A stretch of 22,430 bases of DNA from a virus. Positions 1 to 18,540 of the stretch are shown here, piece after piece. Under the pieces are notes generated by a model. The model had not been told where the DNA came from and searched no databases. It worked only from the letters and a program-made list of their open reading frames with translations. A program made the position numbers and the translations under genes. The first letter of the stretch is position 1. Each line of letters opens with the position of its first letter. Location of the stretch: UHGV virus genome UHGV-0073206; one strand, written 5' to 3'.

Positions 1-864
1 ATGAAGAACACAAGTAAGTTCCAGAATGTAGTGATTGTCACTATTGTCGGTTGGCTTGTGTTGTTTGTCTTTCTGCCCAACCTGATGATCATTGGCACCA
101 GCTTTTTGACCCGCGACGACGCCAGTTTCGTCAAAATGGTCTTTACGCTGGATAACTACACGCGTCTGCTCGATCCGCTCTATTTTGAAGTGCTATTGCA
201 CTCGCTGAATATGGCGCTGATCGCCACCCTCGCCTGCCTGGTGCTGGGCTACCCGTTTGCCTGGTTTCTGGCGAAGCTACCACACAAGGTGCGTCCGCTG
301 CTGCTGTTTCTGCTGATTGTTCCCTTCTGGACCAACTCACTGATTCGCATCTACGGGCTGAAAATTTTCCTCAGCACCAAAGGCTATCTCAACGAGTTTT
401 TGCTCTGGCTGGGCGTTATCGACACACCAATTCGTATCATGTTCACGCCCAGTGCGGTGATTATCGGTCTGGTTTACATTCTGCTACCGTTTATGGTGAT
501 GCCGCTGTACTCCAGTATCGAAAAACTGGATAAGCCGTTGCTTGAGGCGGCGCGCGATCTCGGTGCCAGCAAGTTACAGACTTTTATCCGTATCATTATT
601 CCACTGACGATGCCGGGAATTATTGCCGGATGTCTGCTGGTGATGCTGCCAGCGATGGGCCTGTTCTATGTATCCGACCTGATGGGCGGTGCGAAAAACC
701 TGCTGATCGGTAACGTCATCAAGGTCCAGTTCCTCAATATTCGTGACTGGCCGTTTGGTGCAGCCACCAGCATTACGCTGACTATCGTAATGGGCCTGAT
801 GTTGCTGGTTTACTGGCGCGCTTCTCGTCTGCTGAATAAGAAGGTGAGCGAAATAGATGATTAA
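1..864 (+). CDS. potB: Spermidine/putrescine ABC transporter permease PotB (host gene)
   Basis: 287-aa ORF beginning at window position 1 (MKNTSKFQNVVIVTIVGW...), multi-pass hydrophobic protein with ABC-permease EAA-type loop (LLEAARDLGASKLQTFIRIIIPL); recognised as E. coli PotB. No potC follows; sequence downstream is AT-rich non-coding then phage genes, so the last few codons may be insertion-derived. Confidence 0.9.
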   Translation: MKNTSKFQNVVIVTIVGWLVLFVFLPNLMIIGTSFLTRDDASFVKMVFTLDNYTRLLDPLYFEVLLHSLNMALIATLACLVLGYPFAWFLAKLPHKVRPLLLFLLIVPFWTNSLIRIYGLKIFLSTKGYLNEFLLWLGVIDTPIRIMFTPSAVIIGLVYILLPFMVMPLYSSIEKLDKPLLEAARDLGASKLQTFIRIIIPLTMPGIIAGCLLVMLPAMGLFYVSDLMGGAKNLLIGNVIKVQFLNIRDWPFGAATSITLTIVMGLMLLVYWRASRLLNKKVSEIDD

Positions 865-1263
865 TCCTTTATATTCAATGAAATAAGTTAGTTTTTAAAG
901 GGTTTTGTTGTTGAAAGAAACAGTATTGTATATTTCACCAAAATCAATCAGTTGCGTTCTAGTTTTGGAGAATGTTTTTTGAGGCTTTTTGTTAAAGCTT
1001 GTTATGCATTGCCTCAATTAATAACCTTTTTCCCAGCCCTCCCAACCGTTAAAAAGTCGGGAGGGCTTCAGGCACCAGTTGCAATTGATTTATTGGCCAA
1101 TACCAAACGCTCGGATTGAACCCAAATCCCCCAGGTTATTCAGTTCTTCCTTCATCTCCCGCTGACGTTGATAAATCTCGTGATTGCGATCGACCTGCGC
1201 CTGCGCCACCTGTCAGCGCACCTGATATCACTACAGACATAGTTTTTCTCGCGATAAATTAAA

Positions 1264-1794
1264 TCAGGAAGAGGCTTCCGGAGAGACGGGCCATTCAATG
1301 GCGTTATATGAGGTTTTATCAGTGATGGTGCTGAAATCCATCGCCTGCAGCGATTTCGCGTAAATGCGCCAGACTGTCAGCTTTTCTTTTTCTTCATCAC
1401 CGATGATTCCCAAAAGTAAATCCGTCTTCTTATCGGATATTTCCCGTTCGGCAATCGCAGTAAGACGTGCACGCTCCGACTCTGCCTGCTGCCTGTAGTC
1501 AACAGGGACCGGTAGTACTTCACCGTCTTTATAATACCAGCGCGCCTCTATACAAAAGCCATCCGGTAGTTCATCCACTTCCACAATGGTAAAACCAACG
1601 GGATAAAGACGGGATACATCTTCCGCCACGGAATAAATAACGCCGGTTTCAGGATGCGTGCACAGCTTGTATTTCTTCGTGAATTTATCCAGTGATTCAT
1701 AAAAATCCTGCCCGTCTTCACTACGGAAATACTGAATGCCGTCACCATAAGGCATGTCTTCAGGGTAGTAACGCGTAATGTTTGAGAGTTCCAT
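1264..1794 (-). CDS. Phage tail fiber assembly protein (Tfa family)
   Basis: Start at internal Met (MELSNITRYYPE...) preceded by strong SD AAGGAG; C-terminal region (...DLLLGIIGDEEKEKLTVWRIYAKSLQAMD...IEWP) resembles tail fiber assembly chaperones. The listed ORF 1264..1830 is an N-terminal over-extension. Confidence 0.65.
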   Translation of the reverse strand: MELSNITRYYPEDMPYGDGIQYFRSEDGQDFYESLDKFTKKYKLCTHPETGVIYSVAEDVSRLYPVGFTIVEVDELPDGFCIEARWYYKDGEVLPVPVDYRQQAESERARLTAIAEREISDKKTDLLLGIIGDEEKEKLTVWRIYAKSLQAMDFSTITDKTSYNAIEWPVSPEASS

Positions 1795-1808
1795 TATTTT
1801 CTCCTTAA

Positions 1809-2813
1809 TTAACCTGATACAGATCGCCATGCACCATTAATATAAATCTGAGCCTGTTTGTAATACACGCCACCGATATTGTCTGCAGAGTTACGGCCAG
1901 TATCCTGAACATTAATGCCTGACAAAACACAACCAGAAGGTGCTCGAAACGTCCAGCTGTGCTCGTTCTGGTCCTGAGTAAACGTGACTTCCGAAACAAG
2001 CAGTTCGGTATTGTCGAAACCACAGACCGGATCAAAGACAATCACCCGCTGGTTGGGTTGCCACAGCGTACCGTTACCCTGTCGCCAGCCCTGCACCACA
2101 TAGGTGGTTTCATCCGTCCGCGCCGCCCGTTGCCGGGCTTCAAAGTCAGCACGCGCAATACAGCCTGCCCCCGTAGCCTGCCCTGTCTGCCTGATATACA
2201 TCGGACGGTAACGGGCAATAAATGCGTCCTCTGTGCGGGCCCTCAGCGCGGTGGTGGTGGCCTCACCGAAATCATCGTCGTTTCCGGCACGCTGCCCCGC
2301 CACCTGGTAAACAGAAAACCGCTCCCGGATACTCTTCTCCGTATCGCAGGAAAGGATGTTTTCCCCGAGCACCAGCGCAGTATGCGCCCGCGTTGAGCCA
2401 ATACCGCCAATCACCAGCCTGCCGTGCGGGTCGTCGTAAGCCAGTGCCTGCTGCTGACCGAGTATTTTGTTGATTACCTCAATCACCGTTTCACCATGAT
2501 CGGGCTGGACGTCAGGAATAACACCCGACGGCGCACCGCTGTTCACCACCTCAATGCCGAAGGGCGCAGCAAGCGCCTGCGCAATCTGTACCAGCGATCG
2601 TCCGTTAAACTGTGTCGGTTCGGCTGCACAGTCAATCAGGTCAGCAGTCAGACTACGTCCGGCAATACCGGTGCTGACCGAACGGGCATCGTAACGAACG
2701 GGGGTCGCCTCCACCCAGCCGGTGATCACCAGTTCATCACCAATCAGCACCTCCACTTTTGAACCGTTTTTAATGCGCGGCTGAAGCGTGGTGATACCCC
2801 AGCTCGCGGACAT
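1809..2813 (-). CDS. Phage tail/baseplate protein (Mu gpP / late-control-D-like), probably a truncated or fused remnant
   Basis: 334 aa from Met with weak SD (GGGAAAG); soluble beta-rich composition typical of myophage baseplate proteins; lies between the tail tube gene and tfa where tape measure, baseplate and tail fiber genes would be expected. Family assignment is from recall and is weak. Confidence 0.4.
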   Translation of the reverse strand: MSASWGITTLQPRIKNGSKVEVLIGDELVITGWVEATPVRYDARSVSTGIAGRSLTADLIDCAAEPTQFNGRSLVQIAQALAAPFGIEVVNSGAPSGVIPDVQPDHGETVIEVINKILGQQQALAYDDPHGRLVIGGIGSTRAHTALVLGENILSCDTEKSIRERFSVYQVAGQRAGNDDDFGEATTTALRARTEDAFIARYRPMYIRQTGQATGAGCIARADFEARQRAARTDETTYVVQGWRQGNGTLWQPNQRVIVFDPVCGFDNTELLVSEVTFTQDQNEHSWTFRAPSGCVLSGINVQDTGRNSADNIGGVYYKQAQIYINGAWRSVSG

Positions 2814-2898
2814 CTTTCCCGGTGGGCTCATCAAACTCCAGTACGGAGAGTGTCTCGCCATGAGCGGTAATCGGTTTCTTTAACTCAAGCTCTTTCAT
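2770..2898 (-). pseudogene. Tail assembly chaperone fragment (42 codons: MKELELKKPITAHGETLSVLEFDEPTGKDVREL...)
   Basis: ATG overlaps the tube gene stop (TAATG) as in sheath-tube-chaperone modules; the frame terminates after 42 codons and overlaps the next ORF, consistent with a deletion removing the frameshift chaperone extension and the tape measure gene. Confidence 0.3.
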
Positions 2899-3254
2899 TA
2901 CTGGTAATCCCCTTCTTCACCGTGGAACTCAAGATCGACCGTGCCTTCTTCGGCATTATGGTTCGCTTCGCCGTGCAGCCAGGCAGACGACAGTACATAG
3001 ACCTGACCGTTCGCCAGCTCGGCAGTGATGGTCATCTCATCAGACGAGGTGATTTTGCTCACCGGAAAATTCTTCGGCACCTTGAAGGTCCCTTTGACAT
3101 AAGGCGCACGGTGAGTTTCCTTGCGGTCCACTGAACCGTCCAGGCCGATGATGTCATCATTGACCGTCCTGTTCATGGGCACCTCAATGCCGCCGGTCAG
3201 TGATAGCTGCTGACCGTCAATTTTGAAATAACAGGTTCCCCCGATACGGGCCAT
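2898..3254 (-). CDS. Phage tail tube protein (Mu gpM-like size)
   Basis: 118-aa ORF immediately downstream of the sheath fragment with start overlapping its stop; size and position match contractile-tail tube proteins. Confidence 0.5.
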   Translation of the reverse strand: MARIGGTCYFKIDGQQLSLTGGIEVPMNRTVNDDIIGLDGSVDRKETHRAPYVKGTFKVPKNFPVSKITSSDEMTITAELANGQVYVLSSAWLHGEANHNAEEGTVDLEFHGEEGDYQ

Positions 3255-4030
3255 TATGCAGACTCCTCTGAATACTGAAGACGGAACTGGTTAACCACGG
3301 CAAAGACACGCAACTGGTTAACATAGTCAGGCGGGAACAGCGTGTTCAGGCGGTTCGGATCGCTGGCATCACGCTCCACAACCAGGTACTGCTTGAACAG
3401 TTCGTAGTTTTCCACGATCCCCGCACGCTCGAGCTGACGGTAGGTTGCCAGCAGTTCCCCTTTGATCACCGCCGGGGTGACAATCGCCTGACCGGGACCA
3501 AAGCGGGTACCGTCACTGGCAAGCTTGTGACGCCCGTACTTACTGGTAATGACGGATTTCAGTTTGCGCAGTACATACGCGCTGGTATGCAGCGTCTCGC
3601 TGTCGAGGTAGCTGTTATCCGCAACCCCGTAAGCGTTTTTCCTGTACGTGGTGACATCACGCTGAATGCGCAGCACCCCGCTTTCGACATACGCCGTTGC
3701 CACGCCATGAGACAGCAGGGTCTGCTGCTCGGTCATTGTGAACCGTTTCCCCTTCGGCGCAGGCAGCATACCCACCAGCTCACCGGTCTGCGTGGGACGT
3801 GCCGGATCGTTGCGGATAAACACTGCCGCGCGGGCGGTACGGCTGGCTGCCAGCTCGTCGGCAGGCGTCTGGGTGTCTTTTTCGTACCCCGCCAGGGTAA
3901 TGTGCTGCTGGTTAAACTGGTCACCTGCGGTCACCAGTTCTGACAGCGTGCCGGTCTTTGCCGTATACACATGACCATACAGCTGACGCGCATAGCTCCA
4001 GCGACCGCTGGTATCGTTCATCTCGGTCAC
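3254..4030 (-). pseudogene. Tail sheath protein, C-terminal fragment
   Basis: 258-aa ORF directly upstream of the tube gene; sheath proteins are normally larger than 350 aa; the 5' end overlaps the out-of-frame tail of the terminase fragment, indicating a deletion junction near 4030-4090. Confidence 0.5.
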
Positions 4031-4595
4031 CGTCCTCCGGACGGCTCATGCTTTGAGCATGTACTTCAATACCAAATGCTTCACGCAATGGCTCCGTGCG
4101 TTGCGCCATCAGTCTGGCTGGACGAAAAACTTCCCACGCCTGTTTCTCTGTTGTGGCCCCGGAATACACTTCAGCGCCAAATTCATCATCGCAGGCAAAC
4201 ATATACAGACCAACGCCAGCAGACATTGCTGATTTCCCGTTTTTACGGGGTATTTCGTTGTAAGCCTCGCGAAATCGACGCAGACCGCTCTTTTTTCTCA
4301 CCCACCCAAACACAACACAGATACAGAACAACTGCCAGGGTTCAAGCGTAATGGGCATCCGCTTAAATGCCCACTCCCCTTTGGTGTGTGGCAAAAGCTG
4401 GATAAATTTCGCCACCCGCTCAGCTTTATCTTTATCAAATTTAAACGGATAGTTTTTTTTAACTGAATTTTCCAGGTCATCAAGGTGACGCTGGCAGGCT
4501 AGAACGACATAACGGCAAACCTGAATTTTTCCGCGAACCACGTCACGTGCATACTGATTTGCGGCATTAACGTTCACGTAATTTTTTCGTGTCAT
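3921..4595 (-). pseudogene. Terminase large subunit, N-terminal fragment (truncated)
   Basis: N-terminal ~180 aa ([20 protein letters not shown]...PITLEPWQ...[19 protein letters not shown]...) look like TerL and its ATG overlaps the terS stop; thereafter the frame carries low-quality sequence and ends at 3921. Full TerL would be more than 500 aa. Confidence 0.6.
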
Positions 4596-7338: not shown

Positions 7339-7394
7339 ACTTCCTCCTGAAAATAAAAAAGGGCCACCAGCGACCCGTAAAAAAACACCCCGTC

Positions 7395-7416
7395 AAAGGC
7401 ATCCGCAGATGCCTTT
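7395..7416 (-). terminator. Hairpin (possible weak terminator or processing site) between the cargo cassette and the holin
   Basis: Perfect hairpin AAAGGCATC-CGCA-GATGCCTTT; the U-tract on the minus-strand transcript is displaced by 9 nt, so terminator function is uncertain. Confidence 0.3.
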
Positions 7417-7425
7417 TGTGTGATG

Positions 7426-7578
7426 TTATTCAGATTTACGCAGTAAAGGCCGGAGCACGACCAGCGCCATCGCCACCAGCACACCATCTGCCAGCACCGA
7501 CATCAGTCGTCCGGTGAAATCAACCACCACTACCAGAAACAACAGGATGACAGCCAGCACAAGGCGCGCACTTTTCAC
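7426..7578 (-). CDS. Small two-TM membrane protein (50 aa), GTG start overlapping the upstream stop
   Basis: V/MKSARLVLAVILLFLVVVVDFTGRLMSVLADGVLVAMALVVLRPLLRKSE; GTG overlaps TGA of the TerB-domain gene (GTGA) with GGAG 9 nt upstream; below the ORF-track cutoff. Confidence 0.4.
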   Translation of the reverse strand: MKSARLVLAVILLFLVVVVDFTGRLMSVLADGVLVAMALVVLRPLLRKSE

Positions 7579-8177
7579 AGGTACTGCTCCAGCGGCAACT
7601 GCAGCGCCTGCGCAATTTTCTTCAGTTGCGCTTCTTCTTCCTGAGCGATACCGTCCTGGTCAGCGATATCCAGACACAGGCACAGCACATTAACTGCATC
7701 ATCAGTACCGGCAACATCAGCCAGCTGACGAAGAGCTTCGGCATTGGCAGAACGCGGCGACGCTTCATAACGGGCGCGGATATTTGCACTCATTTGTGCA
7801 ATCTCACCGGAGAACGGCGCAAAGGCAGGAAGTGCTGCAATGGTTTTTTCCAGTACCGCGATTTCTTTCGCGTCACAGGTGCCGTCAGCGTATGCAATGG
7901 AGTACGCGCCCCAGACGGTCGCCTCCACTGCGTCACGGTTCTCCATCTTCTTCACTTCGGTAATGGCCTTGCGGGTTTTCTTTTTGAAAATACTAAACAT
8001 CGTGACTTTTCCTTTTAGTGGGTGAGCCTGCATAACAAGCTGAGTCAGTATTAACTGGCAGCGTTCGCGTGAAAGGTAAGTATTCTGCGCAATTTCCCCG
8101 ACGGTCGCCGGTTCGGTGACGCTTAATTCATTAAACACCACTCTGGCGGTTTCGGTCATATCCTGCTGTTTTAGCAT
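7575..8177 (-). CDS. HTH + TerB-domain protein (N-terminal winged-helix-like segment, C-terminal TerB-like domain)
   Basis: Best start at Met MLKQQDM (8177) with A/G-rich SD; N-terminal ~55 aa contain an HTH-like segment (TVGEIAQNTYLSRERCQLILTQL); the remainder (MFSIFKKK...YADGTCDAKEIAVLEKTI...DIADQDGIAQEEEAQLKKIAQALQL) matches the two DG..E repeat pattern of tellurite-resistance TerB domains. The ORF-track start at 8300 would include the terminator and is less likely. Confidence 0.6.
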   Translation of the reverse strand: MLKQQDMTETARVVFNELSVTEPATVGEIAQNTYLSRERCQLILTQLVMQAHPLKGKVTMFSIFKKKTRKAITEVKKMENRDAVEATVWGAYSIAYADGTCDAKEIAVLEKTIAALPAFAPFSGEIAQMSANIRARYEASPRSANAEALRQLADVAGTDDAVNVLCLCLDIADQDGIAQEEEAQLKKIAQALQLPLEQYL

Positions 8178-8489: not shown

Positions 8490-9044
8490 CTAAGCGTCAG
8501 TAAAAGAAAATGCATCTCGCATCAGTGGATACAGAATAAACTCAGCTATTCTCAGCCACATATCTATACGATTGCGGCATGTTGCATAGCACCACTCAGG
8601 GTGAACCTCATTCAACAATTCAGCCATTTTGCGTTTACTCATCCCCCGCCCTTCGTACCTTTGCCGCAGGATATCAATCAATCCAGGATAACGTGCAAGC
8701 GCTTTACTTATCACCCCATCAATGCGTAACGCCTCTGCATCAGTACAGTGAGACAACCAGCTCTTCTGTCTGCCAGCGATCATCTCTCGCAAGAATGCTT
8801 CCAGCTCTGGTTTATCAATCCCTGACTCCCTGATTCTACGCAGGGCTTCATTGATTGCGGTTTTTGTCAGTTTTTTGGATGCCAGCAACTGATTGAACAT
8901 ATTTCCTGGTTTGCCACCACCTATATACGACCAACGCCCCCACATCCGTAATTTCCCCTGGATCCAGACGACTTCCAGCGTTTTTAGACGTAAATGCTCG
9001 CCGCTTTTGCCTGTAATTTCCGGATATATCATATTTACGATCAC
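8490..9044 (-). CDS. Late-gene antiterminator Q-like protein (QuuD-type family)
   Basis: 184 aa; N-terminal LRMWGRWS motif resembles the LERWGAW motif recalled for small Q-family antiterminators; position between rusA and the lysis cassette is canonical for Q. Start (GTG 9044 overlapping rusA stop, or ATG 9032) is ambiguous. Confidence 0.5.
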   Translation of the reverse strand: MIVNMIYPEITGKSGEHLRLKTLEVVWIQGKLRMWGRWSYIGGGKPGNMFNQLLASKKLTKTAINEALRRIRESGIDKPELEAFLREMIAGRQKSWLSHCTDAEALRIDGVISKALARYPGLIDILRQRYEGRGMSKRKMAELLNEVHPEWCYATCRNRIDMWLRIAEFILYPLMRDAFSFTDA

Positions 9045-9406
9045 TCACTCTCAATTTTGTAAATCTTCACGCCCAGCCGCCCCCCAGGAACGAGCTGACC
9101 GCGCACAATATTGATTTCATCAAACTGCTCGTCGTCTATGAGAAGTCCGGCATGCGTCAGCGCATCCAGTGGTGCTTTCAGGATATTGTCCAGGTCACGA
9201 CGACGTTTATCCGGTGGCTCTGCAATAATCTTTATCGCCAGCCTTCCGGACAGGTTTAATTTCAGCCGCTGCTGGCGAACAATAAGCGCCACATCACGGC
9301 GATAACGCTCACCGGCTTTTGATACAAAATATGTGCTGCCACGACGTCGCCAGTAAGTGTTCACCGTTGGCGGGTAAGGCAAAACAAATTCTATGCGTTC
9401 AGTCAT
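9041..9406 (-). CDS. rusA: Crossover junction endodeoxyribonuclease RusA (Holliday junction resolvase)
   Basis: 121 aa with RusA hallmarks (LPYPPTVNTYWRRRG, PPDKRRRDLDNILKAPLDAL, IDDEQF); typical nin-region location upstream of Q. Confidence 0.85.
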   Translation of the reverse strand: MTERIEFVLPYPPTVNTYWRRRGSTYFVSKAGERYRRDVALIVRQQRLKLNLSGRLAIKIIAEPPDKRRRDLDNILKAPLDALTHAGLLIDDEQFDEINIVRGQLVPGGRLGVKIYKIESE

Positions 9407-10390
9407 TCATGCTTTCCACTTCAGGACACCCGAATTTCTCGCGTGCATTAAAAAACGAATCAGCAACAACAGCTGGCTGCCGTGTTTTTCTTCAAAATCT
9501 TTTACCCCGGCGTGTAGTTCGCTATGGCATTTACGGCACAGCGGAATAACAAACAAATCATCAGCCTTTGTTCCCATCCCTCCCAGTCCATGACCAATGA
9601 TGTGATGCGGATCATCTGCCTGATTGCCACACGTCATGCATTTCTGCGTTTTTACCCAGCGCGTGTATACAGGCATCTCTTCCCGTTGTGGTTTCTGGCG
9701 CTGGAGATACTGAGCCGGTGACTCCGGATCAACGGCAATGCTGACCACCGTCTTTTCCTGTGGCGGGTTTTGCTGGTGGGCGTGAGGCAGTAGCGCAATA
9801 CTTTTTGTGCGCTGCTTCAGCATGCTGGTGGCGGTCTGCTCTCCCGGCACGATGTCGCTCTCGCGGTATACTGAGCGAATTTTTTCCGCGCGTAATCCCA
9901 GCGAACGACGTAACACCATCTCCGGTAGTGCGTCCGCTACGTTATTTATGGTTGCCCACCAGGATAATTCAGCCAGCGATAATTCCCGCTCCTGCGTGCC
10001 ATTCATTGCGTGGCGGATGACATCAATCATCCATGCTGACAGGTTTTGGTGAGCAAGTTGCTCGAGTGATTCGGAAGTCTGGTTACGCAGCTGGTTGTCG
10101 CAGTGCCAGCACAACACCATCGCGCCGGTACCGTAACGATGTATGACGGTTTCACTGTGATGGTAGTCACCATGAGGCCACTGGCAGGATTTAACGTGGC
10201 GTAACAGCCAGTCAGACAATGCACCAGCACCACCAGCAGCACGAATCACCCGCTCATCGCTGAAAAATGGCAGTAATGATTTATCCTCCGCCAGCGGCTG
10301 GCGAACAGCAGGAACGACTCCGGACGGCAGACCGCGCATGCTTTTCGGTTCCGGCTCCACCAGAACTCGAGGGTTATGAAATACCTGCAT
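9407..10390 (-). CDS. DUF968-family phage protein (YdfU-like) with C-terminal HNH-like zinc-finger motif
   Basis: Start chosen at Met MQVFHNPRVLVEPEP; C-terminus has CMTCGNQADDPHHIIGHGLGGMGTKADD...CRKCH; recalled as the YdfU/DUF968 family common upstream of rusA or Q in lambdoid prophages. The listed ORF to 10534 is an upstream over-extension. Confidence 0.7.
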   Translation of the reverse strand: MQVFHNPRVLVEPEPKSMRGLPSGVVPAVRQPLAEDKSLLPFFSDERVIRAAGGAGALSDWLLRHVKSCQWPHGDYHHSETVIHRYGTGAMVLCWHCDNQLRNQTSESLEQLAHQNLSAWMIDVIRHAMNGTQERELSLAELSWWATINNVADALPEMVLRRSLGLRAEKIRSVYRESDIVPGEQTATSMLKQRTKSIALLPHAHQQNPPQEKTVVSIAVDPESPAQYLQRQKPQREEMPVYTRWVKTQKCMTCGNQADDPHHIIGHGLGGMGTKADDLFVIPLCRKCHSELHAGVKDFEEKHGSQLLLLIRFLMHARNSGVLKWKA

Positions 10391-10463
10391 GGATTCACGG
10401 CCCGGTTTTAGCACCACCAGCCCAAGTTCCGGTACCGGAACAGGTCGAAGTAATACCCGCACG

Positions 10464-10742
10464 TTACCTCCAGATGCGTTGCTGGAATGTGCGGGACGGA
10501 CGCGGTGGGCGTTCGGAATAAGGGAGCCTGACATAGATTATCCAGTGACGATAATCGAGGCTGAGGGCTTTCTTAATCTCGTATCCGTGTCTGCGGTAGC
10601 GCTGAATCAGCCATTCAGCCTGTTCTTCGGTGCAGGGATCGTGCTGATACCAGTCAGATTTGAATGCATGAGAACGCCGCCCGTGCCTGCTGGCAGGGGC
10701 GGCAGAGTTATCCGAATTGTAAAATTTGGTATCGTGCGCCAT
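10464..10742 (-). CDS. Hypothetical phage protein (92 aa)
   Basis: Start at internal Met MAHDTKFYNSDN...; basic Arg/His-rich protein, no recognised family; downstream of the hok terminator. Confidence 0.4.
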   Translation of the reverse strand: MAHDTKFYNSDNSAAPASRHGRRSHAFKSDWYQHDPCTEEQAEWLIQRYRRHGYEIKKALSLDYRHWIIYVRLPYSERPPRPSRTFQQRIWR

Positions 10743-10814
10743 CTGTTTTCTCTGCTGGCGCAGCAGGTGCCAGTTGTTCAGGCTGACGGATGGATTGTAA
10801 ACCAGAACGACCAG

Positions 10815-10840
10815 AAAAAACAAAACCCGCCGAAGCGGGT
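10815..10840 (-). terminator. Rho-independent terminator of the hok transcript
   Basis: On the minus-strand transcript: CCCGC-UUCG-GCGGG followed by UUUUGUUUUUU. Confidence 0.6.
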
Positions 10841-10909
10841 TAAGTGCGGGTGCGTTGAGGATGCCTGACACATCAGCGGTGGCGAGGGATTTCTCCCCCG
10901 CCGGGTCTC

Positions 10910-11065
10910 TTACTCCTCAGGTTCGTAAGCTGTGAAGACAGCGACCTCCGTCTGGCCGGTTCGGATTCGTACCTCGCAGAGGTCTTTCCTCGTTACCAGT
11001 GCCGTCACTATGACGGTTAAACAGATGACGATCAGGGCGATTAACATCGCCTTTTGCTGCTTCAT
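10910..11065 (-). CDS. hok: Hok/Gef-family type I toxin (51 aa)
   Basis: MKQQKAMLIALIVICLTVIVTALVTRKDLCEVRIRTGQTEVAVFTAYEPEE: single TM helix followed by the conserved C...R..GQ/T.EV.A...YE motif of Hok/Gef toxins. Confidence 0.85.
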   Translation of the reverse strand: MKQQKAMLIALIVICLTVIVTALVTRKDLCEVRIRTGQTEVAVFTAYEPEE

Positions 11066-11122
11066 AGCCTGCTTCTCCTTGCCTTTCGGCACGTAAGAGG
11101 CTAACCTACATTTGTGAGACAT
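10910..11122 (-). CDS. mok: Mok-like N-terminally extended frame overlapping hok (translational-coupling ORF)
   Basis: 70-aa in-frame extension (MSHKCRLASYVPKGKEKQA + Hok); the size relationship matches recalled mok/hok pairs. Not independently verifiable here. Confidence 0.35.
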   Translation of the reverse strand: MSHKCRLASYVPKGKEKQAMKQQKAMLIALIVICLTVIVTALVTRKDLCEVRIRTGQTEVAVFTAYEPEE

Positions 11123-11241
11123 AGATTGGGCCTCAGATTAATGTTAAGCGTCTTGCAGGACGCGTAATGTTAACTGGGGCTTTTCTCTATCTGCCTTTTG
11201 GTGTTCATGCCTGAGACAGATAGCCTCAAGCACCCGCAGTT

Positions 11242-11269
11242 ATTCTACTTAACTAAGATTTCCCCGCAA
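11242..11269 (-). promoter_or_regulatory. Candidate hok promoter (-35 TTGCGG, 16-nt spacer, -10 TAGAAT)
   Basis: Hexamers read on the minus strand; the predicted start falls just upstream of a 5' segment (plus 11224-11239) complementary to the 3' segment (plus 10844-10860), like the tac/fbi fold-back pairing of hok mRNAs. Confidence 0.4.
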
Positions 11270-11324
11270 ACCGTTTTTGTCCGGCACAGTAAATATCCAA
11301 CTAAACCAATGGCGTTCGCTGTAT

Positions 11325-11543
11325 TTACCGCCAGCATTCAATGCACATGACCGCCATGAACACCCCTAAAAAAAGGGCATTTATATGTCCAAACATTAAT
11401 ATCAAAACATCAATTTTTTCCATATACCTTGCTGTGAAGATGATGGGCATACATGATGCGAACAACCAGAACGCAACAAACAAAAACTGCAATGCGTTTT
11501 TCATTATTCCCCCTACAATCAATGTGCAATAACATTTAAACAC
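11325..11543 (-). CDS. Small hydrophobic membrane protein (59-72 aa, two TM segments)
   Basis: AT-rich ORF; MKNALQFLFVAFWLFASCMPIIF...INALFLGVFMAVMCIECW; no recognised family; adjacent to the hok locus. Confidence 0.4.
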   Translation of the reverse strand: MFKCYCTLIVGGIMKNALQFLFVAFWLFASCMPIIFTARYMEKIDVLILMFGHINALFLGVFMAVMCIECWR

Positions 11544-11624
11544 ACCTCAATTTGGCCGGACATATAAATATCTAAACCAGAAAAAATCACTTACATAGCG
11601 TTACAAACTCTTTAGTCTAAATAT

Positions 11625-12140
11625 TCATCGTAAAACATCCTCCACGCTTATCAGTCCATTTCGTTTCAGGTAATCCATCGCCTTCTCCGGTAATTTGCAG
11701 TCCGGCTGAGCTTTTTTCAGTTGACTGACCAGTCGTTTAACCCACATTGTTAATTCGCTAACCTGATTGCCGGATGCTGGTGGATTGTCGGCTTTACCCA
11801 GAATGGCAGCGCAGCAGGCCTCTCTGAGCACCCAGTCAACAGCATCCTTCCATGCTCCTGTTTCGACTGGCGGATTCTCACGCTTTACCTGTTCATAAAA
11901 GCGCACGGCTTTAACCAGTCCTTCTGATGTCACCGGGACTGGCGGGCCGATGAATAAGGCCTGAATTTCATAGTTCGGCCTGTCGTTACAATCCTCTTTT
12001 GTCGGTACATATTTCCAGTCACCAGCCCACGGCTTCCCCTGAAAGTCTGTAACGTCTTTTTTCACGTAGCGATATCGCCATGCAACTGGTTTTGCCTGCC
12101 CTGCCGTTTCATGCCCTTCCTGATAATTAATCTCGCTCAT
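11625..12140 (-). CDS. Hypothetical phage protein (171 aa)
   Basis: Soluble, Trp/Pro-rich N-terminal half, start overlapping the upstream gene stop (ATGA); no confident family. Confidence 0.5.
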   Translation of the reverse strand: MSEINYQEGHETAGQAKPVAWRYRYVKKDVTDFQGKPWAGDWKYVPTKEDCNDRPNYEIQALFIGPPVPVTSEGLVKAVRFYEQVKRENPPVETGAWKDAVDWVLREACCAAILGKADNPPASGNQVSELTMWVKRLVSQLKKAQPDCKLPEKAMDYLKRNGLISVEDVLR

Positions 12141-12313
12141 TCATCGCCCCACTCATCACAATATGCTTCGACCGGAGTTTTTCCTGCTTCATAATCATCA
12201 CGCCATGCTTCAGCATCAGCAGCACTGCCACCACGTAACTCTGCATAGTCCATTAACAGTTCATGCCATTCTTCAAAACTGACGTTGTATTTAGTTGAAC
12301 CAAAATCAGCCAT
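12137..12313 (-). CDS. Hypothetical small protein (58 aa)
   Basis: MADFGSTKYNVSFEEWHELLMDYAELRGG...; SD GAGGAAG; start overlaps the end of the acidic ORF upstream and the stop overlaps the next gene start; below the ORF-track cutoff. Confidence 0.4.
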   Translation of the reverse strand: MADFGSTKYNVSFEEWHELLMDYAELRGGSAADAEAWRDDYEAGKTPVEAYCDEWGDE

Positions 12314-12488
12314 TTTGTTCTTCCTCTTCGTCTTTTATTTCGTGATATGAGTAATTGCAGTAGTTAAAGAAAATATCTTTTGCTTCGTCATGTATTTCAT
12401 CAGGCGTCGCATCATCATCCACTTCGAATTCATCCTCGAAATCTCCACCGGCTATTCCCGTTTCAATAATTATTTTAAACTTTCGCAT
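12306..12488 (-). CDS. Small highly acidic protein (60 aa)
   Basis: MRKFKIIIETGIAGGDFEDEFEVDDDATPDEIHDEAKDIFFNYCNYSYHEIKDEEEEQNG; Asp/Glu-rich throughout; a GC hairpin (GCCGCCCGAAAGGGCGG) sits between a distal SD-like AGGAGG and the ATG. Confidence 0.45.
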   Translation of the reverse strand: MRKFKIIIETGIAGGDFEDEFEVDDDATPDEIHDEAKDIFFNYCNYSYHEIKDEEEEQNG

Positions 12489-12581
12489 TTAACTACCGCC
12501 CTTTCGGGCGGCCTCCTGATGTTCTGAGGGTGCAGAAATCCCTCCGGTTAAGGATTAAATTTTTAACAGAGCTAAATTTAA

Positions 12582-12938
12582 TTATTCAGTTCTGGATTTT
12601 GTCGCCCTGCGTATCCGCGCTTTCGCGTTACGCTCAATCTGAATTAGCTTTTCTATATTTTTTCGCCTTTCCCGCTCCTCCTGACGCAAGAGCCTTACAT
12701 CATCTGCCAGTCTGGTTTCTCTTTTCGCCACAGAGAGCATCCAGTCAAATGGCTCCACAACTGCACCGCAGATTTTACAGCGGACCTGACGCTCTTTTTC
12801 GTCAACCCGGACAGAGGCGTGATGACAATATGGTCTTTCCGATGGCTCATAAAGAAAATTAACCTGATTACGAGGGTCATCCTCTTTTACCGGAAATAAA
12901 ACGATATTGCTTAACTCATCCTCTGGTTTTATTTCCAT
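12582..12938 (-). CDS. Hypothetical protein with zinc-ribbon-like C-H...C-x2-C motif and Arg-rich coiled-coil tail
   Basis: 118 aa; PYCHHASVRVDEKERQVRCKICG then RLLRQEERERRKNIEKLIQIERNAKARIRR; no confident family. Confidence 0.5.
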   Translation of the reverse strand: MEIKPEDELSNIVLFPVKEDDPRNQVNFLYEPSERPYCHHASVRVDEKERQVRCKICGAVVEPFDWMLSVAKRETRLADDVRLLRQEERERRKNIEKLIQIERNAKARIRRATKSRTE

Positions 12939-13018
12939 GCTCCTCTCCTTTGATGCGAATGCCAGCGACGCGTAATGCGTGTTCTAGGTCAATCAGGTAA
13001 AGCCAACTGCCATTTTCT

Positions 13019-13213
13019 TTAGGTACCCGAACGATTCAGGATTTTTTCCACCCGCAACTGGCGATTCTGGCGGTTGATCTCCTCGCTACGTTTTCGCCCT
13101 TCTGCCAGTTGCCACTCGCGCCACTCGTCCACTGTCCGGTACGGCGCGATTACATGCTGCGGGGTCAGCTTACGGATACGCTCAAGAACACCACCTGTCG
13201 CGATATTTTTCAT
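13019..13213 (-). CDS. Hypothetical small protein (64 aa)
   Basis: ORF immediately downstream of the replication gene, Arg-rich C-terminus; no recognised family. Confidence 0.4.
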   Translation of the reverse strand: MKNIATGGVLERIRKLTPQHVIAPYRTVDEWREWQLAEGRKRSEEINRQNRQLRVEKILNRSGT

Positions 13214-13219
13214 GGCCCG

Positions 13220-14185
13220 TTACCCCCTGAACCCCGGCGGAATTTCGGTATCCGGCTCAGAAATATGATTCACGCAACGCTGTACAGACGAACGCCCCAG
13301 GCGGATAACCAGTTCATCCCATTTTTCGCGAAGCTTTGACGGACTCATGATATTTTTTACCCAGAATGGATCCCGCTGCGCCCGACCAAACATTTCACAA
13401 ATTTGTCTGTGAGTTCTGCCATCCAGCATCCGCATTGTGCGCACGTCGTTGGCCCATGCGGTCCAGTTGGGTTCTTTCGGTCGCGAAATCTCGCCATCAT
13501 CGCTGGCGGCCTGCTCGTAAAGACTCACGATTCGTCCCCAGATCCACTGCGCACACGCCAAATCTTCCTGGTTGCCCCACTGGCGTTTTTTTGCACTGAA
13601 CACAACCGCGTCAGGGTGTCGGGTTAAAAAATCCTGTTCAACCGTCTGCGGGTCCGGTTGCGAAGCTTCCGGACGAGAAGTGTTTTTATTCTCTGTAGTA
13701 ATCTCTGTTGTATTCTCTGTAAGATCATCAGGCCATTTTGACCCGATGACATTGAGTCGTTTTGAACCAATGGAACGTGCCATTTTGGCCCCTTCCATCG
13801 TGTCATTCTGACCTGATGGAGCAGCGCATTTTGACCTGATGGATTCGCTCACTTTGCCACCATTTAAAAGCTCGCTCTCGTAATTAATCGTGTAAAAATT
13901 AGTCATATCACGCTTTGATTTATTGAGCTTTTCGCAACGCAAAAGCCCCAGCGTTTTCAGACTTGCAAATGCGCGTTTTAACGTTGACTCTGACCAGAAC
14001 GGGAACTGCTCCAGCCATTGTTCTGTTGTGTTATAAATCCAGCGAACACCATCACATTCCATGCCGGAACCGGTATCTCTCAACCAGTAATGCAACTGCT
14101 GCAACACGATGGCTTCGTTCAGACCAATTTTCATCGCCAGCTGCGTGTTTATAACCAGCGGACGTTCAGCAAAAAGGAGCTTCAT
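13220..14185 (-). CDS. Phage replication initiator (lambda O-like replisome organiser) with internal origin repeats
   Basis: 321 aa; N-terminal HTH-like region (LNEAIVLQQLHYWL) typical of phage replication initiators; the central low-complexity stretch (TENTTEITTENKN) is encoded by DNA repeats as in the lambda O gene; lies after cro/cII-like genes. No helicase-loader gene follows. Confidence 0.65.
   Translation of the reverse strand: MKLLFAERPLVINTQLAMKIGLNEAIVLQQLHYWLRDTGSGMECDGVRWIYNTTEQWLEQFPFWSESTLKRAFASLKTLGLLRCEKLNKSKRDMTNFYTINYESELLNGGKVSESIRSKCAAPSGQNDTMEGAKMARSIGSKRLNVIGSKWPDDLTENTTEITTENKNTSRPEASQPDPQTVEQDFLTRHPDAVVFSAKKRQWGNQEDLACAQWIWGRIVSLYEQAASDDGEISRPKEPNWTAWANDVRTMRMLDGRTHRQICEMFGRAQRDPFWVKNIMSPSKLREKWDELVIRLGRSSVQRCVNHISEPDTEIPPGFRG
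13683..13870. repeat. Candidate origin of replication: 3 copies of TTCTCTGTA-like repeat and about 6 iterons (~23-bp period, core CATTTTGACCYGATGG) with adjacent AT-rich segment
   Basis: Seen directly: ATTCTCTGTAG / ATCTCTGTTG / ATTCTCTGTAA at 13686-13722; iterons CCATTTTGACCCGATGAC, CGTTTTGAACCAATGGAAC, CCATTTTGGCCCCTTCCATC, TCATTCTGACCTGATGGAG, GCATTTTGACCTGATGGATTC, TCACTTTGCCACCATTT at 13733-13870; AT-rich 13861-13920. Confidence 0.55.
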
Positions 14186-14206
14186 CCCCCCCCCCAGAAC
14201 ACGTTA

Positions 14207-14632
14207 TCAATGCGCCACCACGGCATTTCCCGCCGGACCACCACGATTCATCTGATCGAACAACACGATCGCTGCCGCAACAAACTCATCGATATCTTTC
14301 ACCAGGCGCTCCCGTCGCTCGACAAGCTCCCGGTGATATTCCGAACTGTGGCTGCGCATTCGGGCCACCAGTGGAGGCGGCATTGCTTTTTCGATCGCCG
14401 GTAACAACGCCTGAATTTTTTTAACCGCATCAGGGGTGTCTTTTTCTACCCAGCGGAAAATTTTCTGGGTATTACGAGACAGGGCTTCCGGATGGCTGTC
14501 GTCATACAGTTCAGGAAACGTCATACCCAACTCAAAATAAGCCTGGGTTATTCCAGCTACTGGAACTTTTTCGCCATCAGGACGCGCCCAGGCATTCATC
14601 GCCATGCGGATGTGTTCATGCTTGATTTTCAT
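14207..14632 (-). CDS. YdaT-like protein (CII-analogous regulator family, Rac-type)
   Basis: 141 aa beginning MKIKHEHI..., matching the recalled YdaT N-terminus and size; follows and overlaps the YdaS-like gene. Confidence 0.6.
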   Translation of the reverse strand: MKIKHEHIRMAMNAWARPDGEKVPVAGITQAYFELGMTFPELYDDSHPEALSRNTQKIFRWVEKDTPDAVKKIQALLPAIEKAMPPPLVARMRSHSSEYHRELVERRERLVKDIDEFVAAAIVLFDQMNRGGPAGNAVVAH

Positions 14633-14888
14633 GAATCAACTCCGGTGCATTTGATGTGTTAACCTTGAATCCAACAGGTAAACCGTCGGTTGGGTTAGGA
14701 TAAATATCAGGGCGAATTTCATGCGGGGTAACTTCCCACTTCATTAGCTGACATAACGGAATTACCTGCTTTGGGGGAACGTCAAAGCTAAACCATTGCC
14801 AAACTGTCTGTTGAGCGACCCCCATATAACGACCTATTTCAGCTTGAGTGTATTTCTGCCTAATTTTTTCGCGAGTGCTATCTAGCAT
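14616..14888 (-). CDS. YdaS-like Cro-type HTH regulator
   Basis: 90 aa, HTH (TQAEIGRYMGVAQQTVWQW) and EV.P.EIRPDIYP segment resembling Rac YdaS; divergently oriented to the repressor gene across an operator-containing intergenic region; SD GAGGAGAG. Confidence 0.65.
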   Translation of the reverse strand: MLDSTREKIRQKYTQAEIGRYMGVAQQTVWQWFSFDVPPKQVIPLCQLMKWEVTPHEIRPDIYPNPTDGLPVGFKVNTSNAPELIHENQA

Positions 14889-14925
14889 TTTGCTCTCCTC
14901 TAAAAAACTATAAGCAAAACCTACA

Positions 14926-14959
14926 ATAAAAAACTGTACACAATCAACAGTTTTTTATT
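14926..14959. promoter_or_regulatory. Operator-like inverted repeat in the divergent repressor/cro-like promoter region
   Basis: AATAAAAAACTGT-ACACAATCA-ACAGTTTTTTATT; same half-site (AAAACTGT / ACAGTTTT) as the repeat at 15962-15992. Confidence 0.5.
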
Positions 14960-14997
14960 GTGATGCTTTTAACAGTATTTACCTGTAAAATTGAATA

Positions 14998-15399
14998 ATG
15001 ATGAACGCCCTAGAAGTATCTATGTACAGAATCAGCAAGCTTCTTCAGGAAACTGGATGGAGCCAGGCTGAGCTTGCCCGTAGAATTGGTGTGACACAAC
15101 AAACTGTTCAACAATGGGTCAGCGGTAAGGCTACACCTAAAGCCTCAAGTTTGGATAAACTGGTTGAGGTTACAGGGCATCCATTGCATTGGTTTTTATT
15201 GCCTCCTGAAGAGGGGGAGCAAATTTTCACCCCTGACACGATGAAAATTGGTCCTCGTCAACGCGAACTGCTCCAGGCTTTTAGTGCGTTTCCAGAGGAA
15301 GACCAAGAAAAAATGCTTCAAGAAATCAAAGACAAGAAAAAATCAATGGAAGAAACCATTGCCCGGTGGTTGGCGGCACAAAAAAGCCGCCGGGCGTGA
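14998..15399 (+). CDS. XRE-family HTH repressor (PaaR2/RacR-like), candidate prophage repressor
   Basis: 133 aa; HTH (GWSQAELARRIGVTQQTVQQWVSGK) then HPLHWFLLPPEE; occupies the cI position divergent from the cro-like gene and directly upstream of the antitoxin/toxin pair. Confidence 0.75.
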   Translation: MMNALEVSMYRISKLLQETGWSQAELARRIGVTQQTVQQWVSGKATPKASSLDKLVEVTGHPLHWFLLPPEEGEQIFTPDTMKIGPRQRELLQAFSAFPEEDQEKMLQEIKDKKKSMEETIARWLAAQKSRRA

Positions 15400-15426
15400 C
15401 CACAGTACAAGAAGAGGAGTTATGCC

Positions 15427-15618
15427 ATGAGTACAGCCCTTTCTCCGATAGTTTCAGAATTCGAAACTACCGAACAAGAAAACAGTTACAACGAATGGTT
15501 ACGCGCTAAAGTGGCGTCAAGCCTTGCAGACCCTCGTCCCTCAATTCCACATGATGAGGTAATGGCTGAAATGGAGAATCTTATTGCTCAAATTGCTGTA
15601 ACTAACAGGAGCGAGTAA
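15427..15618 (+). CDS. paaA2: PaaA2-like antitoxin
   Basis: 63 aa; SPIVSEFETTEQENSYNEWLRAKVASSLADPRPSIPHDEV matches the recalled PaaA2 antitoxin of the PaaR2-PaaA2-ParE2 module; SD AGGAG 9 nt upstream; stop overlaps the toxin start (TAATG). Confidence 0.7.
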   Translation: MSTALSPIVSEFETTEQENSYNEWLRAKVASSLADPRPSIPHDEVMAEMENLIAQIAVTNRSE

Positions 15619-15905
15619 TGTTACCCATTTTGTGGCTACCATCTGCTCGCGATGATTTGCGTCAGATCGTAGCCTATATTGCTAAGGAAAATATTCCTGC
15701 AGCACGCAGACTAAAAATACGGATTGAAACGTCTGTTTTAGCCCTCTCTGAGCATCCATATCTATATCCGCCAAGTGATCGAGTATCCGGTTTGCGGGAA
15801 ATTGTGGTTCACCCTAATTATATCGTTTTGTACCGAGTAGCAGCTTCAAGCATTGAAATTGCAAATATTGTGCATGCCCGCCGACAATTTCCCTTCCCTA
15901 TCTGA
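15618..15905 (+). CDS. parE2: ParE/RelE-superfamily toxin (ParE2-like)
   Basis: 95 aa; ParE-like features (DDLRQIVAYIAKENIPAARRL...LSEHPYLYPPSDRVSGLREIVVHPNYIVLYRV); translationally coupled to the antitoxin. Confidence 0.8.
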   Translation: MLPILWLPSARDDLRQIVAYIAKENIPAARRLKIRIETSVLALSEHPYLYPPSDRVSGLREIVVHPNYIVLYRVAASSIEIANIVHARRQFPFPI

Positions 15906-15922
15906 ACTGAACAATTTTCACA

Positions 15923-15947
15923 CCCCCTCATTCGAGGGGGTTTTTTT
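15923..15947 (+). terminator. Rho-independent terminator after parE2-like gene
   Basis: CCCCCTC-ATTC-GAGGGGG followed by TTTTTTT. Confidence 0.7.
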
Positions 15948-15961
15948 GTCCAACACAACAA

Positions 15962-16001
15962 TTAAAAACTGTTGACACAAAACAGTTTTTAATTGTAGAT
16001 T
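15962..16001 (+). promoter_or_regulatory. Early-left (dicB-operon) promoter overlapped by operator inverted repeat
   Basis: -35 TTGACA (15972-15977), 18-nt spacer, -10 TAGATT (15996-16001); overlapped by TTAAAAACTGTTGACACAAAACAGTTTTTAA sharing the half-site of the 14926-14959 repeat. Confidence 0.55.
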
Positions 16002-16177
16002 ATTTCCACTACCCCACCCCGCCCCACAGAACGCAGGGCAATACTTCGAGTTACCCGGCAGTGGTCAGGGGTTAAGTAGCCAGCCCGAGGCGTAAGAACA
16101 TGACGGCAGGGTTCAACTTTAACTATGCAGCAGGTTTTTGTTCCGCTACCCCGGCGTTAAGGGGAAATGAGGTCAGC

Positions 16178-16333
16178 ATGGATACTATCGATCTTGGCAA
16201 CAACGAATCTCTGGTGTGCGGCGTGTTTCCCAATCAGGACGGCACGTTCACCGCGATGACGTATACCAAAAGCAAAACGCTTAAAACCGAAAATGGTGCC
16301 CGTCGCTGGCTGGAAAGAAACTCAGGTGAGTGA
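16178..16333 (+). CDS. ydfA: YdfA/YdaF-like small protein (51 aa)
   Basis: Start at Met MDTIDLGNNESLV... with SD GAGG; matches recalled YdfA/YdaF of Qin/Rac prophages; first gene of the dicB-type operon. Confidence 0.6.
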   Translation: MDTIDLGNNESLVCGVFPNQDGTFTAMTYTKSKTLKTENGARRWLERNSGE

Positions 16334-16334
16334 T

Positions 16335-16463
16335 ATGGATTTCAACACAATCATGGAAAAGGCTTACGAAGAATACTTCGAAGGCCTTGCCGAAGGCGAA
16401 GAAGCCCTCAGCTTCAGCGAATTTAAACAGGCGCTTTCCAGTTCGGCAAAATCTAACGGCTGA
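16335..16463 (+). CDS. ydfB: YdfB-like small protein (42 aa)
   Basis: MDFNTIMEKAYEEYFEGLAEGEEALSFSEFKQALSSSAKSNG; start 1 nt after the ydfA-like stop; size and position match YdfB. Confidence 0.5.
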   Translation: MDFNTIMEKAYEEYFEGLAEGEEALSFSEFKQALSSSAKSNG

Positions 16464-16492
16464 TAAGCGAAGCAGCACCGCGAGGAATCAGT

Positions 16493-16711
16493 ATGCAGAA
16501 ACGAGAACCCGTCATCATCGCGCCAGACTATACCGATGATGAACTTTATGAGTGGATGCACCAGAAAATTAAGGCTGCGCAGGACCTGAAATGGGCCAAT
16601 GAAGCCAGGGCTAAGCAGGCTGAAAATCTGTCCGCTCTGGAGCAGGATATCACCAATCTGGAAAAAGCAGCGGCATTAAGCATTGCCAGAATGATTACAT
16701 ACCCACGTTAA
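16493..16711 (+). CDS. ydfC: YdfC-like protein (72 aa)
   Basis: 72-aa coiled-coil-like ORF third in the operon; size and order match YdfC of Qin-type dicB operons. Confidence 0.55.
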   Translation: MQKREPVIIAPDYTDDELYEWMHQKIKAAQDLKWANEARAKQAENLSALEQDITNLEKAAALSIARMITYPR

Positions 16712-16733
16712 TGGTTAACCAACGAGGCTAATA

Positions 16734-17339
16734 ATGGAATTTAAAGATTTACCAAAAGAAATCCAGATAATTGCTGCAACGACACTCGGTGATAGTCTGG
16801 TGAAAATTGACCCGGCATACACCAAAAAAGAAACCATCGATAATATGGTTCGTAATGTGCGCAATGCTTTTTCAGGGCTATATGGTTCTGATAATCAAAA
16901 ACAGGAAAACGATATTGATGAACGGGTAATTTCTGTTTGCCTGAATGGTCATGTTATTTCAGCAATCAGAACAGAAACGGCAACTGCTTTTGATTATCTC
17001 TGCATGATTCAGAGTCTTGCCGATGTTCTGTTGAAATCAAAAGATTTAGAAAACGATGCAAATTTACAGGGGCGCACAATAGCACATCCATATGCACATA
17101 TTTTAAGCTCTGTGGATGTTAAAAATAATACCCTGCAAGTTGCTTTCGAACATTCACCGCAAGAGTTAAAAACGAAAAAAGACGATGCGGATAAAAATAA
17201 TAACGATGCACCTGATTTGTTTATTATCAGCTCAAAGCTGCTGGAAATCATGAAGAGCGAGCTTGAAAAACACAACATCAAGCCCACTTCTGTAAATTTA
17301 CGATGGGTAATGAGGATTATTGACGCTTCTCTGTCATAA
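16734..17339 (+). CDS. Hypothetical protein (201 aa), AT-rich cargo gene inserted between ydfC-like and DicF-like
   Basis: Clean 201-aa ORF, visibly more AT-rich than flanking genes, starting 23 nt after ydfC-like; no recognised domain; Lys/Asp/Asn-rich with no TM segment. Confidence 0.6.
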   Translation: MEFKDLPKEIQIIAATTLGDSLVKIDPAYTKKETIDNMVRNVRNAFSGLYGSDNQKQENDIDERVISVCLNGHVISAIRTETATAFDYLCMIQSLADVLLKSKDLENDANLQGRTIAHPYAHILSSVDVKNNTLQVAFEHSPQELKTKKDDADKNNNDAPDLFIISSKLLEIMKSELEKHNIKPTSVNLRWVMRIIDASLS

Positions 17340-17439
17340 GCTTCTTATCCAGGAATGCTTCAAATGTATTGTAAATGGCGTCAATTTCCCCCATTTGCTC
17401 GGTAGCAAGAGAAATGGCGTGAGATAGTGAAAGGGGCAC

Positions 17440-17508
17440 CTAGCAATGGGCGTTAAAGGTTTCCACGGCCAGGCGCATAAGAAACATTACTTTTTCTTCT
17501 TGTGTCAT
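17440..17508 (-). CDS. 22-aa ORF with near-consensus SD (MTQEEKVMFLMRLAVETFNAHC); possible small peptide or chance ORF
   Basis: ATG preceded by AGGAGG at 9-nt spacing on the minus strand; lies within the ORF-poor segment downstream of the 201-aa gene. Confidence 0.2.
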   Translation of the reverse strand: MTQEEKVMFLMRLAVETFNAHC

Positions 17509-17895: not shown

Positions 17896-17898
17896 AAG

Positions 17899-18054: not shown

Positions 18055-18071
18055 TTGTTGAGGACGCGATA

Positions 18072-18460: not shown

Positions 18461-18540
18461 TTAATATCCGGTTTCATTTTTATATGCCAGCAATGGCAGG
18501 GATTTGTTCACCCTTAAATCTGTAATGAGGTTAAAACAAA

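Follow-up and report, generated by a model that had tools for sequence, protein, structure and literature searches.

The probable left attachment site of a lambda-Int-type prophage at the potB/potC junction of Escherichia coli, with a tail-fibre-module gene remnant beside it

In Escherichia coli K-12, potC begins at the potB stop codon, the two genes sharing a 4-base ATGA overlap. In the DNA analyzed here, a stretch of 22,430 nucleotides from virus genome UHGV-0073206 (termed the window), potB is followed by AT-rich DNA and phage tail genes, which raises the question of where exactly the host sequence ends, what has become of potC, and what the elements between the junction and the first tail gene represent. 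Comparative analysis indicated that positions 833–1263 are, with very high probability, the left end (attL) of a Rac/phiP27-like prophage with an integrase of the lambda Int type, integrated site-specifically where potB and potC overlap by 4 bases. The potB stop codon, an ATGATT motif, AT-rich DNA, a hairpin and a minus-strand reading frame had all been described in an initial annotation of this sequence, and each was found where it had been placed. The features discussed below are as follows.

1–864, plus strand: potB (287 aa), an ORF with the stop codon TAA at 862–864; host DNA up to 846, phage DNA at 847–864 (the last five codons and the stop)
833–846, no strand: att core, attL copy, TGAATAAGAAGGTG; includes the Shine-Dalgarno-like AAGGTG(G) of potC
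847–864, plus strand: phage-supplied 3′ end of potB, AGC GAA ATA GAT GAT TAA (SEIDD and stop), where K-12 has GAA CTC GAA TGA (ELE and stop)
865–1035, no strand: phage arm, AT-rich and non-coding, with a conserved, presumably functional part (865–980) and a more diverged spacer (981–1035)
942–954, plus strand: match to the IHF consensus, AATCAATCAGTTG (WATCAANNNNTTR), largely conserved across the aligned arms; suggestive only
962–972, plus strand: candidate arm-type integrase-binding site, GTTTTGGAGAA, invariant in eight arms
1036–1066, no strand: stem-loop, rich in G+C, separating the att arm from the last minus-strand gene
1090–1209, minus strand: pseudogene retaining only the 39 3′-terminal codons of a DUF4376 (PF14301) gene of the tail-fibre module, MAQAQVDRNHEIYQRQREMKEELNNLGDLGSIRAFGIGQ followed by a stop
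1210–1263, no strand: spacer left by the truncation, common to prophages with the same module of tail fibre assembly gene (tfa) plus relic (three-way alignment)
1264–1794 (ORF to 1830), minus strand: tail fibre assembly gene, 176 aa as called, Pfam Caudo_TAP (1.9e-21)
1959–1968, 2793–2799 and 4016–4031: deletion joints relative to the prophage of strain TD225-C4, with 7–16 bp overlaps (also 7386–8031 and 10788–13026)
21065–21343 (called as 89 aa, 21074–21343), plus strand: excisionase gene (xis), named after the excisionase annotation at the homologous position in TD225-C4 and in phage records
21312–22430, plus strand: lambda-family tyrosine integrase gene (int), 372 aa, Pfam PF09003 (Arm-DNA-bind_1) and PF00589 (Phage_integrase), transcribed toward attR and potC

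The protein encoded by the first ORF was identified as PotB over its full length by the NCBIfam equivalog model NF007044 (552.4 bits, cut-off 348; residues 1–284 aligned with positions 1–283 of 285), the difference being confined to the extreme C-terminus. BLAST comparison with K-12 MG1655 revealed homology spanning window positions 1–846 (98.6% identity) and stopping exactly at 846. At the K-12 potB-potC junction, where the potB stop TGA overlaps the potC ATG, CTGAATAAGAAGGTG is directly followed by GAACTCGAATGATCGG, and in the window the same CTGAATAAGAAGGTG runs into AGCGAAATAGATGATTAATCC.

The other end of the prophage was located by a look-up of the exact 823-aa exonuclease protein encoded in the window. 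The contig carrying this protein, ENA scaffold BAEC15-1_SAMEA2579934_METAG-scaffold_63, is 100% identical to window 8541–22430 (13,890 bases), and past the integrase stop codon it reads CCGCCTTATGAATAAAAAGGTG followed by GAACTCGAATGATCGG. The core was then defined by a three-way comparison of attL, attB (K-12) and attR (the window's contig, TD225-C4 and ten further loci). The unoccupied attB, with one copy of the core, is found in K-12 MG1655, whose potB-potC region reads CTGAATAAGAAGGTGGAACTCGAATGATCGG, while the attR copy on the window's contig, TGAATAAAAAGGTG, lies 145–158 bp beyond the window end and matches TGAATAAGAAGGTG at 13 of 14 positions. Since K-12 homology stops at 846 and this block recurs past int, the att core is TGAATAAGAAGGTG at 833–846. 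The same two results bear out the prophage-host junction that had been placed at the 3′ end of potB, and the second att copy, expected just beyond position 22430, is present at +145 to +158. The core itself had been sought at about 855–865, which did not hold: comparison of this segment (AGATGATTAAT) with the sequence beyond int detected no repeat, the longest shared stretch being the 6-mer GATGAT, inside potC.

In the window's strain the direct repeat is thus imperfect (13/14). An attR was present at all ten of the other loci encoding an identical integrase, and since its variable position is G in five of them (A in the other five), the repeat is able to be a perfect 14-mer, as is the case (14/14) in five of these ten related loci. 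In summary, a short block of identity is directly repeated at the opposite prophage end and lies where host homology stops. Chance does not account for this junction: host homology breaks off at one base, and the 14-mer flanking it is found again at the far end of the prophage.

The integrase is homologous to lambda Int in comparison with structures of the latter (E value 2.6e-54, 187.8 bits, residues 26–371), and its catalytic-region motifs GQR, KTG, FHExRS, LLGHK and the C-terminal Y could be aligned with those of lambda Int. The excisionase gene is located upstream of int and overlaps its start; the 89-aa protein of the window itself had no family match. Acting with such an excisionase, the integrase would have recombined a phage attP and the chromosomal attB that share the 14-bp TGAATAAGAAGGTG, and excision would leave the attB scar CTGAATAAGAAGGTGGAACTCGAATG. 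When the phage collection was searched with the arm and the reconstructed attP, no free-phage record having a contiguous attP was found, and attP is therefore reconstructed rather than observed; the matches were prophage-derived records or predictions that still hold host potCD. The exact junction sequence had no matches in species-representative genomes, a result uninformative on host range beyond E. coli.

Some further observations were made at the two ends. An imperfect 12-nt inverted repeat, TGAATAAGAAGG / CCTTTATATTCA, flanks the junction (window 833–844 and 866–877), and TGAATAAA is found in the int-side arm (window's contig, 13999–14006); these may be core-type or accessory protein sites. 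In TD225-C4 (46244–47260), approximately 1 kb separates the int stop from the attR arm and contains an opposite-strand DUF2335 gene and a small hypothetical gene, unlike the window's contig and the 10 other loci, in which potC follows 166 bp after int. Two deposited Escherichia phage records, ON470612.1 and ON470619.1, contain host potC, potD, ymfA and ycfZ after the integrase gene, and are prophage predictions overrunning attR.

The consequences of the insertion for the host operon can be read from both ends. The crossover falls in the last potB codons, 8 nt 5′ of the potC ATG. At attL, potB loses its last three codons and stop (ELE and stop) and reads into 18 phage bases encoding SEIDD and TAA, the C-terminus changing from ...NKKVELE (K-12) to ...NKKVSEIDD. 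This phage-supplied stretch (847–864) is nearly invariant among eight aligned phage arms, and RefSeq treats the 864-bp form of potB as a complete PotB gene in occupied genomes. The ATGATT at 857–862 had been interpreted as the first two codons of potC, but it lies 11–16 nt into phage DNA and is invariant in 8/8 aligned arms, one of which adjoins cdtA, not potB. A derivation of the phage PotB tail and of ATGAT from the potB-potC junction of another host was also considered; similarity to attB past the core is confined to short matches, ATGAT among them, compatible with chance.

The proposed displacement of potC was confirmed on the window's own contig, where its ATG is found beyond the prophage, at +167 relative to the window end and the int stop; the contig carries intact genes for both PotC (264 aa) and PotD (348 aa). 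The translation signals of potC are kept at attR because the core contains AAGGTG(G), a purine-rich stretch upstream of the potC ATG; as a result of the duplication of this core, including AAGGTGG, both genes remain intact but 21.7 kb from potB. They directly follow xis-int, which are transcribed toward potCD. The potABCD transcription unit is thereby cut, and expression of potCD would need read-through from xis-int or an unrecognised promoter in the arm. Consensus scans of the spacer between the int stop and potC identified no terminator-like or promoter-like site, and we infer that read-through from int would be the simplest source of potCD transcription.

The phage arm adjacent to the junction differs in composition from the host gene, with a G+C content of 29.2% at 865–1035 compared to 50.5% in potB. 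The region 865–1035 contains no ORF longer than 55 aa and, by consensus scan, no promoter-like or terminator-like site, and an Rfam search of 700–1500 yielded no match. The conserved part of the arm (865–980) is present in 985 of 5426 complete E. coli genomes (~18%), mostly at 77–79% identity, including CFT073, H10407 and ST131 strains; the window's own arm type is rarer, with 46 genomes in which at least 80% of 865–1122 is covered. Alignment of eight arms revealed two near-invariant blocks, 839–879 and 938–980.

The motif TTTTGGAGA occurs in three exact copies in the window plus its attR extension (0.19 expected), all within the att arms. One is in the attL arm; the other two belong to a series of three tandem copies that lies past the int stop and ahead of the attR core. 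Sites of the arm type would be laid out in this way for an integrase that possesses an arm-binding domain. The WATCAANNNNTTR match at 942–954 is the sole one in the window, with 0.93 expected by chance, and is thus not above chance. It is proposed that 865–980 may act as a protein-binding arm, with one arm-type repeat and an IHF-like site, opposite an int-side arm with three tandem repeats. An inverted copy of the arm motif with one mismatch (935–943) was rejected as a site for lack of conservation in the other arm types.

In E. coli O84:H7 Trh52 (660–930) and phage cdtI (AB285204, 23895–23934), the same arm is located beside cdtA, not potB; it starts at AGAAGGTG of the core and includes ATGATTAATCC, the arm-type site and the hairpin. 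The cytolethal-distending-toxin cargo may have been acquired at an old att site.

The hairpin that borders the arm is formed by pairing of GCCCTCCC (1036–1043) with GGGAGGGC (1059–1066). RNA folding gave -20.3 kcal/mol (z -2.8) for the plus strand and -29.5 kcal/mol (z -4.4) for the minus strand. On neither strand is the hairpin followed by the T-run of an intrinsic terminator, and it was not reported by the terminator consensus scan; it does not qualify as a canonical terminator. Three variants, namely those of the window and CFSAN029787, of OkiPb01676, and of TD225-C4, CFT073, H10407 and Stx1a, keep a strong stem approximately 185–190 bp from the core, with surrounding sequences that are only ~60% alike across the three arm types; the strand preference is inconsistent among the variants. 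RNAalifold analysis of these variants found one compensatory pair only and mis-registered the window-type stem, and separate folds were relied on instead. We regard the hairpin as a conserved element that marks where the late tail-fibre operon meets the att arm; most likely it serves as a 3′-end or insulating stem-loop for the minus-strand late transcript.

Beyond the hairpin lies the decayed minus-strand frame, which had been regarded as a relic of either a tail-fibre gene or an invertase region. Only the former stands, in that it belongs to the tail-fibre module: 36 of its 39 residues are identical to residues 170–208 of a DUF4376 protein that is intact (208 aa) in strain CFSAN029787, where its gene is the last one adjoining the same arm type; no invertase domain was found in the genes called for the window. 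The relic by itself gave no Pfam match, with 39 of 208 codons left it is not a complete gene, and there are in-frame stops just upstream of 1090–1209 on the minus strand.

The origin of this arrangement could be traced by comparison with two other prophages. Window 1–1208 is collinear with CFSAN029787 at 99.5%, and homology to the intact DUF4376 gene stops at 1208, while window 1123–1968 matches the tfa-plus-relic module of TD225-C4 (6273–7118) at 98%. Since collinearity extends to 1208 with the former and from 1123 with the latter, the join falls within an 85-bp stretch of shared DUF4376 3′-end sequence. The relic would be the scar of a recombination or deletion joining this arm to a different tail fibre assembly module. 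Window 1–4267 and window 851–4269 are reproduced at 100% in contigs from two other samples, obtained with other assemblers, and an exact-protein look-up found the fusion gene described below in eight contigs. Given this recurrence, the order arm, relic, tail fibre assembly gene is a real, rare recombinant and no assembly artefact; window 600–1900 is contiguous in none of the 5426 complete E. coli genomes.

Four other explanations of these data have to be weighed against the reading given above. A core and crossover at about 855–865, with ATGATT as the retained start of potC, would account for the Met-Ile that ATGATT would encode, like the ATGATC that starts potC in K-12, and for the 12-nt imperfect inverted repeat centred near 855. 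It is nevertheless extremely improbable, as K-12 homology stops at 846, only a 6-mer within potC is shared beyond int, the true potC ATG sits at attR with its own upstream sequence, and ATGATT is an invariant sequence of the phage arm, even in an arm that does not adjoin potB. There is just as little to recommend an assembly chimera, whether at the junction or in the arm-relic-tfa order. The label of the source contig (metagenome scaffold), the absence of a contiguous 600–1900 from all 5426 complete genomes and the overlap of the two homology types within the 85-bp shared stretch would fit a chimera, but the 100% identical contigs from two other samples and the eight contigs with the fusion gene argue strongly against it, as do the 985 complete genomes in which potB itself meets the arm. 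In Mu-like and P2-like tails, fibre and assembly genes are often carried in invertible segments, and this prophage has a Mu-type baseplate, which could suggest that 1090–1209 is the relic of a Gin/Pin/Cin-type invertible tail-fibre segment. This is very improbable: the relic has the same strand as the tail fibre assembly gene, and is not inverted; it corresponds to the 3′ end of a DUF4376 gene that elsewhere is the intact last gene beside the same arm; and neither the genes called for the whole window nor the intact relative in TD225-C4 yielded a resolvase or invertase domain.

The role of the hairpin leaves more room for a different interpretation. It could be a retroregulator like lambda sib/tI, destabilising or terminating the int transcript in the circular phage, whereas in the prophage state it would be moved to the opposite end, relieving int for excision. 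The geometry is lambda-like: int is directed toward att, 145 bp separate the int stop from the core, and the hairpin follows 190 bp beyond the core on the same strand. Three diverged arm variants retain the structure, which travels with the att arm and not with the last tail gene. On the other hand, the U-run needed for a tI-like terminator is missing, the stems (11–16 bp) are short for RNase III, the stem of the window is more stable on the opposite strand (-29.5 versus -20.3 kcal/mol), and obligatory read-through is made less plausible by TD225-C4, in which int and att are separated by two opposite-strand genes. A sib-like function is therefore considered unlikely. Somewhat less likely still is the broader scheme in which the insertion rewires polyamine uptake, with potCD dependent on xis-int read-through, and the hairpin acts in a sib-like way, controlling int only when the prophage is excised; if true, how much of the spermidine transporter is expressed would be tied to the state of the prophage. 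A boundary element at the end of the late operon remains the preferred reading of the hairpin. Two small testable questions are raised by these data, namely the route of potCD expression in lysogens and the role of the conserved hairpin.

The attL described here is an ordinary feature and its att site is already known, since potB/potC is a well-known insertion site, occupied in approximately one sixth of sequenced E. coli genomes. The 44-kb Phi-potB of CFT073 is a rac-like prophage inserted into potB (PMC4632033, PMC3573123, PMC4045071); this Phi-CFT073-potB, the "potB genomic island" of uropathogenic E. coli, carries a rac-like recE and structural genes (PMC4632033, PMC3573123). It shares with the window the insertion point at the potB end and an arm that is 76.7% identical over 865–980; the arm-type and IHF-like motifs recur there, as does a hairpin in the corresponding place. 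The prophage of the window differs in being a derivative of ~21.7 kb with multiple deletions, unable to make particles, and in having an arm of the rarer type, joined to another tail fibre assembly module via the DUF4376 scar.

Insertions at this locus are also recorded for Stx phages: potC is among the insertion sites listed by Steyert et al., as cited in PMC8065619, and a compound prophage of O157:H7, "prophage 5 (potC)", is located at potC (PMC10925052). The deposited prophage LC744180 (Stx1a_EH2115) shares the arm and has the identical junction sequence, AATAAGAAGGTGAACGAATTAGATGATTAATCC, at its end, whereas no stx genes are present in the gene lists of the window.

The recombination system resembles that of lambda in having a full-length homologous integrase with an arm-binding domain and a xis gene upstream of, and overlapping, int. 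Putative arm-type motifs repeated in both arms (three in tandem on the int side), a match to the IHF consensus and an AT-rich arm of ~150–200 bp would extend this likeness. The core and the arm motif (TTTTGGAGA) differ from those of lambda, and the target is the end of a gene within an operon, not an intergenic site. As with Rac at ttcA, the host gene receives from the prophage a replacement for its terminal coding segment (for TtcA, see PMC4632033), and the early region of the window is related to that of Rac (RecE-like exonuclease, DicB, YdaS/YdaT); the att site, however, is another one, and it is the C-terminus that is replaced in PotB and the N-terminus in TtcA. The practical value of these results is a precise map (core at 833–846, phage-encoded PotB tail, potC ribosome-binding site within the core, arm motifs) for delimiting prophages at this site, with little importance beyond correct annotation.

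TD225-C4 has an intact prophage of ~43 kb at this site, compared to which that of the window has lost stretches of ~5.2, 3.7 and 7.3 kb. One loss extends from the baseplate to the fibre genes, one crosses the genes for circularization and tape measure, and one reaches from tail sheath to large terminase. One of the deletions generated a fusion ORF (1809–2831, minus strand), in which a hub protein similar to Mu GpP/gp44 is joined to a fibre C-terminus. The deletion joints are identical (100%) in three independent assemblies.

Further genes were also noted in the window: a Hok/Gef-family toxin gene (10910–11122, minus strand), a PaaA2/ParE toxin-antitoxin pair (15427–15905, plus strand) and dicB (18072–18260, plus strand), all identified from precomputed Pfam matches on the identical contig.
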